38,085 bases of DNA from a virus: the IMG/VR virus record IMGVR_UViG_3300045988_014547. One strand, 5' to 3'. The notes beneath the pieces are model-generated. The model had not been told where the DNA came from. It did no database searches and saw only the letters and a list, made by a program, of their open reading frames with translations. The translations under genes were made by a program, and so were the position numbers. Positions 24,643-26,318 of this stretch are shown piece after piece; position 1 is the stretch's first letter; every line of letters starts with the position of its first letter.

Positions 24643-26318
24643 TACACAACCCCTCTGATGATGTCAATTACAAGTTTAACCGCGTTTGGGAATATCCGTT
24701 GCATCTGCAAAAAGGATTCTTCATTCGCCGCGGCGCTATCCAATACTTCTGCAAAAAATTCTCGTTCTGTTGCTCCGGGTCGTTTGTGATATTTCACGCC
24801 ATGCCCAATTCCCAACGGATATGACGTGTTTGTACAATACTCAAGGATATCTGAAATATTTCCGCATTCTGTCAGCGGCATATTTTCTGACTTAAGCATT
24901 GCGATTAGGTCGGCATTTTTCTTCGCACCAGATGCTTTCTTAAACGCTAAGTAGTCGCTTTTTATAATGCCCCCTAATCTTTTTCCATTATACGCCATAT
25001 TGGAGGCATATGCAACTGGGTTTTTCCCGCCAATAAGCCAATCAATGTTATGTCCAAACTCGTGAAACGCCACTTGATACGGCTTCTGATATCTACTTCC
25101 GGCCGATGCACTTGCCTCGTCAAAGTGTATGCCTCCATCTCCACCAGAGAAGTATGCGCCCTTTTTATAGTTCCCGTCAACACATTTTAGCTCGTCCTCA
25201 TATTTTGCATATACTTCTTTTGTTTCCCTGTGCGTACTTTTACTGAGCGTTTCTTTCATCCCGATTCCGAAGCTCGCTGTAATTCCGGAAGTCCCAGAGA
25301 AGGTTGCAGGATGTTTAGTTGCTTTCTGTTTCCACCCCACCCACTCCTGATACGTCATATCAGAAATAACCACGCTCTCGCCCGTCTCGGGGTCACGCGC
25401 ACGGCGCTGCGCGTCGGACGTGTCCACATCGTCCAGCGCTGCGACCATCGTGCAGCGGCAGTTATAGACCTCGCCGGGCCGCCCCTGCGGGTCGCCGGGG
25501 AAGCGGCAGCCGTTGGAAAACTTATCGTCCGTGCCGACCTTCTCCCCGTCCAGCGCCGCGTGGGAGTGCCGCGTGCGCCCGTCTAACGTCGCCAGCCACT
25601 CTTTTTTGAGCTTGATCCCCATCTTCTCCGCCGCCGCGTAACTGTCCATACGCCCGGCGTTCTGCGCCCCTGTGAAGGCCGTGCGCGCCGTCCGGATTGC
25701 GCTGGTGCGGTCCATGGTCGTGATGCGCTGCTGTAGATCGTCCGCGATTCCCCGTAAACTCCGGCCCTGCAGGATAGAGCTGGTCACGCTGGCCGTGATC
25801 TGCCGCCGCCCATACGCCAGGTCAATACCACGCCGCAGCGCCCGGGCAGGCGGATAATTGGGCATCAGCTCCGGCTGCTCCACGATCAGCCGCCGGGCCG
25901 CCTGCTCGTCCCAGAGGTCAAAACCGACGTTCCCAGCAACCTGCTCGATCGTATACGCCGCATAGTTGCGGTTCAGACTGTAAATGCCCGGAGTCTCGTC
26001 GTTTATGTAAGAAATCGCCACGGCGTTTGCATTGGTCATCCGCTGCGCAATCCGCTCCCGCAGTGCCTGGTAGCGCTCCCCGCGTCCGATTTGTGCCAGC
26101 CGCCATTGTTTATAGTCCTGCTCCGTCCACTCCTTGCCGTTGACGACCTCGCCAATCAGCGCCCTCATTTCCTCGTCGCGCTTTGCAAACTGCTCAAAGT
26201 AAGCGTCGATGGTCTCTTGCAGCTCCCGCCCGGCCTGTGCATAAAGCCGCGCTATGCGGCGCTCCAGATCCCGGAGCTTTTTGTCAGTCAGCGTATGTCC
26301 GAGGTCATGCGTCGCCAT
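24642..26318 (-). CDS. MuF/SPP1-gp7 head morphogenesis protein fused to a C-terminal anthrax-lethal-factor-like zinc metalloprotease domain
   Basis: 558 aa. The MuF domain ends at PGEVYNCRCTMVA (~aa 290). The C-terminal ~200 aa carry HEFGH (nt 25050-25064) and, about 100 residues later, EREFFAE, then FPNAVKLVIDII. This parallels the LF HEFGHAV...NEAEFFAEAF...FINDQIK region. Confidence 0.8.
   Translation of the reverse strand: MATHDLGHTLTDKKLRDLERRIARLYAQAGRELQETIDAYFEQFAKRDEEMRALIGEVVNGKEWTEQDYKQWRLAQIGRGERYQALRERIAQRMTNANAVAISYINDETPGIYSLNRNYAAYTIEQVAGNVGFDLWDEQAARRLIVEQPELMPNYPPARALRRGIDLAYGRRQITASVTSSILQGRSLRGIADDLQQRITTMDRTSAIRTARTAFTGAQNAGRMDSYAAAEKMGIKLKKEWLATLDGRTRHSHAALDGEKVGTDDKFSNGCRFPGDPQGRPGEVYNCRCTMVAALDDVDTSDAQRRARDPETGESVVISDMTYQEWVGWKQKATKHPATFSGTSGITASFGIGMKETLSKSTHRETKEVYAKYEDELKCVDGNYKKGAYFSGGDGGIHFDEASASAGSRYQKPYQVAFHEFGHNIDWLIGGKNPVAYASNMAYNGKRLGGIIKSDYLAFKKASGAKKNADLIAMLKSENMPLTECGNISDILEYCTNTSYPLGIGHGVKYHKRPGATEREFFAEVLDSAAANEESFLQMQRIFPNAVKLVIDIIRGVV

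Follow-up and report, generated by a model that had tools for sequence, protein, structure and literature searches.

A lethal factor/PPEP-like zincin domain and a small partner gene as an exchangeable cassette on a MuF minor capsid protein of a temperate gut phage

What could a phage gain from a minor capsid protein that ends in a domain resembling a toxin protease? This question is raised by the window analyzed here, which is the whole 38,085-bp contig of the IMG/VR record IMGVR_UViG_3300045988_014547, derived from a temperate, siphovirus-type phage. Its MuF gene encodes a 558-aa protein, in which an N-terminal MuF/SPP1 gp7 module is fused to a C-terminal zincin domain similar to anthrax lethal factor (LF) and to the PPEP peptidases. 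The fusion gene is followed by a gene for a 52-aa protein, further called the partner. MuF polymorphic toxins of temperate phages were described in 2012 (Zhang et al., PMC3482391) and in 2017 (Jamet et al., PMC5576092). The data presented below suggest that this locus is likely such a MuF polymorphic toxin, carried by a temperate phage of gut Oscillospiraceae together with its cognate immunity or inhibitor protein, where the proteolytic activity, the packaging and the target of the protein are what we infer.

Architecture and fold of the zincin domain

The features of the locus are collected in Table 1. The MuF part of the protein was recognized by the Pfam model Phage_Mu_F (E 5.4e-21, 75.9 bits versus a cutoff of 29.6) and by the TIGR01641 phageSPP1_gp7 model (E 2.6e-11, above its cutoff), and PHROG 4728 ('head morphogenesis') covered the MuF part together with the zincin domain. 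The Pfam match ended at the NCRCTM sequence, in agreement with an earlier reading of the window from its letters, further called the sequence-only reading, which had placed the end of the MuF domain near this motif. The open reading frame (ORF) and the HEFGH and EFFAE motifs that it had pointed out were also found in their places, and an FPNAV sequence is located at aa 543-547, near the C-terminus of the zincin. The SPP1-type portal gene immediately precedes the MuF gene. The exact 558-aa protein is present on 216 public contigs, where it is named 'SPP1 gp7 family putative phage head morphogenesis protein' or hypothetical. One relative from another sample, with a 95%-identical MuF (P0019), has a frameshift about 55 residues into the zincin, where it enters the alternative frame corresponding to 24974..25183 on the minus strand, which could reflect either a pseudogenized toxin or an assembly error.

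Table 1. Coordinates of the MuF-zincin locus and of other genes of the phage in the window
Feature	Position	Strand	Basis or remark
MuF-zincin fusion gene, 558 aa	24642..26318 (stop codon included)	-	ORF list
MuF / SPP1 gp7 minor-capsid domain, aa 173-291	25446..25802	-	Pfam Phage_Mu_F (PF04233), TIGR01641
Junction motif MTYQEW, aa 321-326	25341..25358	-	Variable C-terminal cassettes start just past the motif
LF/PPEP-like zincin domain, aa 331-558 (228 aa)	24645..25328	-	AlphaFold2, Foldseek, profile versus PDB, hhalign
HEFGH, aa 419-423	25050..25064	-	H419 and H423, predicted zinc ligands; E420, predicted catalytic base
Insert motifs SDILE (aa 489-493) and PLGIGHGVKY (aa 501-510)	24789..24854	-	Family-specific
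EFFAE, aa 520-524	24747..24761	-	E520, predicted third zinc ligand; E524
Partner gene encoding 52 aa, putative immunity/inhibitor protein, MTVDEAIRAYTERFGGFPAFLFMGASDDVIIDAVKKAVSTGEEIEAEANNDY	24484..24642	-	Synteny; start codon within the TAATG overlap with the zincin stop
Exchanged cassette of two genes (zincin domain and partner gene)	24443..25328	-	blastn versus locus L094, foreign composition
77-aa ORF, two transmembrane segments, GC content 0.466	24177..24410	-	Pfam Tmemb_185A, E 1.2e-5, 25.6 bits (cutoff 23.1)
Major capsid gene	21952..22818
SPP1-type portal gene	26305..27669	-	Pfam SPP1_portal, E 6e-37
Large terminase	27694..28947
Tyrosine integrase	6775..7908	+	N-terminal zinc ribbon

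The structure of the zincin domain was predicted with AlphaFold2 from an 18-sequence alignment, and the model had a predicted local distance difference test score (pLDDT) of 94.9 and a predicted template-modeling score (pTM) of 0.92. The model has the layout of a zincin, in which the N-terminal helices are followed by a three-stranded sheet and by the helix with the HExxH motif (model residues 85-99), and then, beyond a helical insert, by a helix with a conserved glutamate, where residue E190 of the model is E520 of the full protein. The comparison with the PDB using Foldseek showed that the best 50 matches came exclusively from MEROPS family M34, namely anthrax LF, C. difficile PPEP-1/Zmp1, and Geobacillus PPEP-3, with Foldseek probability up to 0.98 and a template-modeling (TM) score of 0.54 when normalized to PPEP-1. 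A profile of the domain only, built from 36 diverse homologues, was searched against all PDB sequences and independently gave PPEP-1/Zmp1 as the best match (E 0.003-0.012), followed by LF (E 0.068). The alignment consisted of two collinear segments, one at HExxH.ID and the other from EFFAE through a conserved proline, and the EFFAE sequence of the zincin was aligned to the EFFAE of PPEP-1. The comparison of the zincin profile with the LF catalytic domain using hhalign gave an E value of 6.3e-5 and a probability of 64.6%, with the alignment ending at HEFGH; over 183 aa, this LF sequence showed 100% identity to P0194, a protein with the PF07737 domain. A partial alignment with a probability of 22% was obtained against a single ATLF sequence (P0195).

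The residues predicted to form the active site were conserved among the aligned homologues. Among the 36 diverse homologues, H419, E420, H423, S489, D490, G505, H506, Y510, E520, A523, and P544 were invariant, and this invariance held for homologues with identity as low as 22-30%. As in MEROPS M34 and ATLF proteins, the HExxH motif is followed by a helix with the E-F-F-A-E sequence, with a tyrosine upstream of the glutamate and a proline in the C-terminal helix. The sequence-only reading had also stated that the distance between HExxH and the glutamate agrees with that in LF, which did not hold, because this distance is 97 residues (H423-E520), about twice the 45 residues in LF (H690-E735), and it is 39 residues in PPEP-1. 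The longer distance is explained by a family-specific helical insert of about 50 residues with the invariant sequences SD..E and PLGxGHG..Y. The last residue of the latter, Y510, is a candidate equivalent of LF Y728 and PPEP-1 Y178, although the distance from the tyrosine to the glutamate is 10 residues versus 7 in LF and PPEP, and the sequence identity to these proteins is 10-16%. Hence, the domain has the signature of gluzincins, which includes HExxH, a conserved tyrosine, and a downstream glutamate in an ExxxAE-type helix, but with spacings unlike those of LF and PPEP-1.

The scans of the domain against Pfam and NCBIfam detected no family above threshold and no Tox-MPTase match. The most frequent subthreshold match in Pfam was to MtfA/Peptidase_M90 (PF06167), another HExxH gluzincin family, which was detected in 13 of 18 close homologues (best E 0.0033) and in 7 of 85 more distant representatives (best E 0.00067). 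However, all these scores were below the gathering cutoff of 26.2 bits, and no M90 protein was found among the best 50 Foldseek matches. M91 was also matched weakly, below threshold, the ATLF model was matched by only 2 of the 85 representatives (best E 5.7e-5), and PF18818 by one of them, weakly (E 0.0023). These data indicate that the domain is a gluzincin with predicted protease activity, whose nearest characterized relatives are the LF/PPEP (M34) peptidases, and that it belongs to a separate family without a curated model rather than to the curated ATLF family.

The partner gene and the boundaries of the exchanged cassette

The composition of DNA changes inside the fusion gene. The GC content was 0.63 in the MuF part (25329..26318) versus 0.439 in the zincin part (24645..25328), and the GC content at third codon positions was 0.78 in the MuF part, 0.42 in the zincin, and 0.40 in the partner gene, so that the drop at the zincin occurs within one reading frame. 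The 886-bp block that spans both the zincin and the partner gene belonged to the lowest 1% of windows of the same size on the contig (mean 0.536, standard deviation 0.044). The borders of this block were also seen in the comparison with other phages. DNA homology to the 95%-identical phages of loci L091 and L094 stopped at 25329, and blastn of the window against L094 detected homology only over 27700..25329 and 24442..22677. The block replaced between the two phages (24443..25328) corresponds exactly to the zincin domain together with the partner gene. The AT-rich foreign module proposed in the sequence-only reading was thus real as a drop in GC content, but it did not end at 24645, because it extends to 24443 and contains a second gene.

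The start codon of this second gene overlaps the stop codon of the zincin (TAATG), with a GAGGGG sequence located 9 nt upstream. Homologues of the partner were found using a hidden Markov model (HMM) iterated on the fetched loci, and each locus that had one carried a single copy, in the same orientation as the zincin gene and immediately after it. Among viral loci, 48 of 50 contained the partner, 30 of them in a 52-61-aa form and 18 in a 76-79-aa form, while one of the two loci without it was truncated. The two forms are homologous to each other (hhalign probability 92%, E 6e-7). The partner was also found in 21 of 32 genome loci, which included all loci from Clostridia, Lactobacillales, and Coriobacteriia, except for one from Cuneatibacter (L081), as well as one from Opitutia; the Cuneatibacter locus has a similar-looking 84-aa ORF, which was not detected by the partner HMM. 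A cultured phage, Streptococcus phage Javan202, also has the partner, as the 71-aa hypothetical protein QBX24704, whose gene comes right after that of the minor capsid protein QBX24705. The exact partner sequence of the window is present on 439 contigs, where it is named 'hypothetical'.

In its AlphaFold2 model (pLDDT 86) the partner forms three short helices, while its acidic tail is disordered. Most of the partner homologues, of both the 52-aa and the 76-aa form, end in a tyrosine after the acidic tail (...NDY, ...ADY, ...AVY, ...RLY, ...KLY), and this tail may enter the groove of the protease. In two loci, from Opitutia (L075, 6786-7103) and Slackia (L076, 6888-7223), the partner domain is tandemly duplicated in one protein of 105-111 aa. 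The conserved position of the gene next to the zincin suggests that the partner is probably an inhibitor or immunity protein of the zincin.

The polymorphism of the locus was analyzed in 80 viral loci, in which the first 310 aa of MuF were 78-100% identical to those of the window. The data showed that just after the M[TS]YxEW motif the MuF protein either stopped or continued into C-terminal cassettes of 15 unrelated types. The proposals of the sequence-only reading that the module was swapped in, and that the protein belongs to the MuF polymorphic toxins, were supported by this variety and by the blastn breakpoints. In L091-L094 the MuF parts were 97-98% identical, yet three different cassettes were present. 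The cassettes of two types matched Pfam ADPrib_exo_Tox significantly (E 1e-32 and 5e-16), while another was weakly CdiA_C-like and one weakly JAB-like, both below the Pfam thresholds. Four other cassettes contained HExxH, including one weakly M90-like and one weakly ATLF-like in Pfam, which suggests that protease cargo is recurrent in this phage lineage. These four cassettes are mutually unrelated, with the motifs CHEIGH...EDFAES, YHEIGH, THEFAH...NEFLAEC, and WHEIGH...QELVAEC (L096, L098, L104, and L112). The short 338-aa MuF form without extension was found in 5 of the 80 loci, and had no partner gene. Small downstream ORFs also accompanied other cassettes, while none was located after the short MuF proteins.

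Another gene considered for the immunity function was the 77-aa membrane ORF, which is located between the toxin cassette and the head genes, and which is absent from the phages with short MuF. It was rejected as the cognate partner because it is outside of the swapped block and is common to phages that carry other cassettes. This ORF is probably a separate moron.

Spread of the zincin family and its genomic contexts

The size of the zincin family was estimated by an exhaustive profile search of 1.84 billion representatives, clustered at 50% identity. At a threshold of E<=1e-3 the search detected 1,609 clusters, of which 133 remained at E<=1e-30. As the library profile included coiled-coil N-terminal regions, a few of the weakest of the 1,609 clusters could be coiled-coil matches, while the top 150 were all matched over the zincin. 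In most of the top matches listed the domain was C-terminal in a protein of 550-700 aa, and among the 85 representatives analyzed with Pfam, Phage_Mu_F was detected in 42 and Phage_min_cap2 in 13. Structurally similar 'minor capsid proteins' were also found in BFVD (E 2e-8, TM 0.78). The deposited phages with homologues were Streptococcus phage Javan202, two Enterococcus phages, two Stenotrophomonas phages, and one bat-derived myovirus, in which this region was named minor capsid protein or hypothetical protein, or was left unannotated. In 3 of the 85 representatives (P0043, P0048, and P0067) an intein (Pfam Intein_splicing) is located inside the MuF domain, where it splits a conserved MuF motif (...VWNC|FIGET...AHNC|RC); the MuF-zincin fusions that host these inteins reach a length of 1,059 aa. 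Distant homologues of 282-585 aa were found in Bacteroidota, including Chryseobacterium, Flavobacterium, Pedobacter, and others, and in a metagenome-assembled genome (MAG) of Legionellaceae (L078-L080, L082-L088).

The zincin-partner pair is not restricted to phages. In Clostridia, zincin proteins of 201-395 aa with a helical N-terminus in place of MuF were followed by the same partner gene, and FtsK/SpoIIIE-family ATPases of at least 1,100 aa were encoded within about 2 kb of these zincin genes. All 6 metagenome loci of this FtsK context, which represent two lineages, contained the partner, as did all 5 genome loci of the same kind, from Lachnoclostridium sp. An131 and from MAGs of Lachnospiraceae, Eubacteriales, and Clostridia. 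In the 8-kb flanks of the two metagenomic non-MuF lineages, no genes for phage structural proteins were called. One of these loci (L001, 1-17038) also contains genes for a Ser/Thr kinase, VWA and PP2C proteins, the three forming a trio, as well as TerY_C, transglutaminase, and Sel1 genes, together with four paralogous genes that encode the approximately 100-aa N-terminal helical domain of the toxin (M..Y.IS.EG...L...GLGIYE). Another one (L004, 1-17179) contains genes for a ClpB-like AAA protein, a HerA/DUF87-like ATPase, Hsp70, and GrpE, and further FtsK/EssC-like ATPase loci are L058-L061 and L064. The non-MuF loci with the zincin-partner pair may represent an undescribed secretion or conflict locus.

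The remaining genes of the window are consistent with a temperate phage. The head module has the order terminase, SPP1 portal, MuF, scaffold, and capsid, and the contig also encodes an amidase endolysin and a tail endopeptidase/fibre protein, and has a weak tape-measure match. The integrase is located in the 4000..8000 block, which has a lower GC content of 0.46-0.49 and the opposite orientation, and presumably is the lysogeny module; the window may be a complete phage genome. The nearest deposited relative is Flavonifractor phage Chenonceau, with about 67% DNA identity over the portal and MuF genes. According to public records the host lineage is Ruminococcaceae or Oscillospiraceae, and the phage is abundant in gut-type metagenomes.

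Proposed role of the locus and alternative explanations

The simplest way to connect these observations would be the following mechanism. The MuF module (aa 1 to about 320) would recruit the protein to the portal or procapsid, which would result in the packaging of a few copies; for SPP1 gp7, the entry into the capsid via the MuF module is established. The 228-aa domain, which is predicted to act as a gluzincin endopeptidase with H419, H423, and E520 as the zinc ligands and E420 as the base, would be joined to the MuF module by a short linker with MTYQEW at its end. In the producing cell, the translationally coupled, acidic, and helical partner would bind and neutralize the protease, whereas after ejection together with DNA into a cell without the partner, the fusion protein could cleave one or more cytoplasmic proteins. 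The protease and the partner would behave as a single recombination cassette, exchanged at the MTYxEW junction for other toxin-immunity cassettes, and the same cassette would also serve the non-phage systems associated with FtsK/EssC ATPases in Clostridia. The fact that the toxin domain is common to different trafficking families, while the partner tracks the toxin and not the trafficking module, is consistent with the signature of polymorphic toxin-immunity systems (Zhang et al. 2012, PMC3482391; Jamet et al. 2017, PMC5576092).

The comparison with known systems points in the same direction. The MuF toxins that have been characterized experimentally are only the (p)ppApp synthetase Apk2 and the ADP-ribosyltransferase Bxa, and both of them are neutralized by small immunity proteins encoded in their vicinity (PMC11699363). 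Similarly to MuF toxins, the locus described here has an N-terminal MuF/SPP1 gp7 module encoded next to the portal, an exchangeable C-terminal cassette, and a small downstream ORF as a candidate immunity gene, it is carried by a temperate phage of Firmicutes, and its toxin domain is common to another trafficking system. It differs from Apk2 and Bxa in being of a predicted protease type, which is not described among MuF toxins in that study (PMC11699363), and in that neither the zincin nor the 52-aa partner has a Pfam or NCBIfam model above threshold. Nevertheless, the fusion of a metallopeptidase to MuF is not unusual, contrary to what the sequence-only reading had suggested, because Jamet et al. 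(2017, PMC5576092) report a metallopeptidase domain in 20% of MuF toxins. LF-like zincins serve as C-terminal or internal effector modules also in the Tox-ALF-metallopeptidase (Tox-ALFMPTase) proteins (Zhang et al. 2012, PMC3482391) and in the MPTase-PolyVal proteins (PF18818; PMC5512222). The latter zincins, from polyvalent proteins, are linked to MuF and packaged with DNA (Iyer et al. 2017, PMC5512222), while Tox-ALFMPTase was reported with delivery by Photorhabdus virulence cassettes and type II secretion and with Imm-SuFu immunity, and not with MuF or the 52-aa partner. In contrast to LF, PPEP-1, PPEP-2, and PPEP-3, which are secreted, the window protein is predicted to be cytoplasmic, tethered to the capsid, and accompanied by a dedicated small partner.

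Several observations weigh against this interpretation. The best Foldseek match of the zincin had an E value of 0.08, with no match at E<=1e-3, its TM scores normalized to the query were 0.45-0.47, and the hhalign alignment to LF covered only 59 columns. Additionally, Pfam ATLF (PF07737) matched neither the window protein nor its 17 close homologues, even at a permissive E value. The proposal of an LF-like zincin, made already in the sequence-only reading, is thus upheld by the M34 identity of all 50 best Foldseek matches and by the ranking of PPEP-1 and LF in the profile search, but not at the level of the ATLF model, and with modest scores in the fold comparison. Neither a Pfam family nor a meaningful Foldseek neighbor was found for the partner, and what points to its putative role is synteny. 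In the loci of the distant Bacteroidota and Legionellaceae homologues no partner was detected downstream using the HMM; these homologues may use another delivery route or another immunity arrangement. As regards the non-phage context, the ATPases best matched the EssC/EccC models of type VII secretion systems in NCBIfam, but far below the cutoffs (about 64 bits versus 346-778), and the non-MuF proteins had no LXG match and no WXG100 match above threshold, with E 0.05 in one homologue. This secretion context can be described as EssC-like only. With regard to novelty, MuF toxins, LF-like zincin toxin domains, and MuF-linked metallopeptidases were already known, and the locus would not surprise a specialist. 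What is new here is the zincin family without a curated model, the dedicated family of the 52-aa partner, the exact boundaries of the cassette, and the occurrence of the pair in two settings, that of the capsid and the EssC-like one.

The explanation closest to a toxin is an anti-defense or host-takeover effector, which would cleave a host defense or regulatory protein early, or bias the choice between lysis and lysogeny, while the partner would silence it during assembly. It differs from the toxin mainly in the purpose of the protease, and the sequence evidence fits both equally well. Low-toxicity MuF cargo, such as proteases, was proposed to steer lysis-lysogeny (Jamet et al., PMC5576092), zincin metallopeptidases packaged with phage or plasmid DNA were proposed as early effectors (Iyer et al., PMC5512222), and the few MuF copies expected per virion suit a catalytic and specific effector. 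However, the pair is also present in non-phage EssC-like loci, where anti-defense at DNA entry makes little sense, and the zincin is interchangeable with ADP-ribosyltransferase and weakly CdiA_C-like cassettes, which are typical of interbacterial toxins, and hence this explanation appears unlikely. A morphogenetic protease, which would cut the MuF fusion or head proteins at assembly or ejection, with the partner setting the timing, is highly improbable, although autoproteolytic roles were suggested for zincins of packaged polyvalent proteins such as P1 DdrB (Iyer et al., PMC5512222). The label 'head maturation protease' of phrog_595, one of the PHROGs that match the protein, does not concern the zincin, because this match spans only aa 13-335, which is the MuF part. 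Phages with about 80%-identical MuF carry the 338-aa form with neither the extension nor the partner, and others carry ADP-ribosyltransferases or unrelated cassettes at the same position, which argues that the zincin is dispensable for morphogenesis, and the occurrence of the pair outside phages also speaks against such a role. The explanation with the least probability, a nearly negligible one, is that the domain is an inactive or decaying passenger, as the frameshifted zincin of P0019 could suggest; the catalytic and family-specific residues are intact and invariant in even the most distant of the aligned homologues, the identical protein recurs on many contigs, and the model of the domain is highly confident.

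The relation to LF raises the possibility that the protein is directed against eukaryotes, as a virulence or colonization factor released at lysis and acting on mammalian gut proteins. The closest solved relatives are LF, a toxin of mammalian cells that acts on mitogen-activated protein kinase kinases, and the secreted PPEPs, and the abundance of the phage in gut-type metagenomes and its Oscillospiraceae host would suit such a role. LF, however, needs protective antigen and its own N-terminal domain that binds this antigen. Neither of the two is present here, and the MuF-zincin protein has no signal peptide, receptor-binding module, or translocation module. Moreover, the linked and translationally coupled partner, found in nearly all viral loci, implies that the producing cell needs protection, which suggests that bacterial cytoplasmic substrates exist and that the target is inside bacteria, rather than the activity being purely eukaryote-directed, which we consider very unlikely. 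The precedent of the MuF toxin Bxa, which acts on epithelial cells as well as against bacteria (PMC11699363), leaves a dual role, in which members of an inhibitor-paired LF/PPEP-like endopeptidase family, delivered by capsids or EssC-like systems, would also cleave mammalian gut proteins after prophage-induced lysis; by analogy this could be envisaged, but it is quite unlikely.

The locus, considered as a MuF polymorphic toxin, provides a clean and abundant example of the protease type, with a defined cassette, an intact active site, and a candidate 52-aa inhibitor. Because neither the zincin family, with its approximately 1,600 clusters, nor the partner matches any Pfam or NCBIfam model above threshold, thousands of phage 'minor capsid proteins' are under-annotated in this respect. 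The literature searches found nothing specific on a MuF metalloprotease with an immunity protein, or on PPEP in phages. The identity of the substrate would show what a phage gains from injecting a protease, and also how a protein of only 52 aa could block the active site of an LF-like protease, which would have some relevance to the design of LF and PPEP inhibitors.

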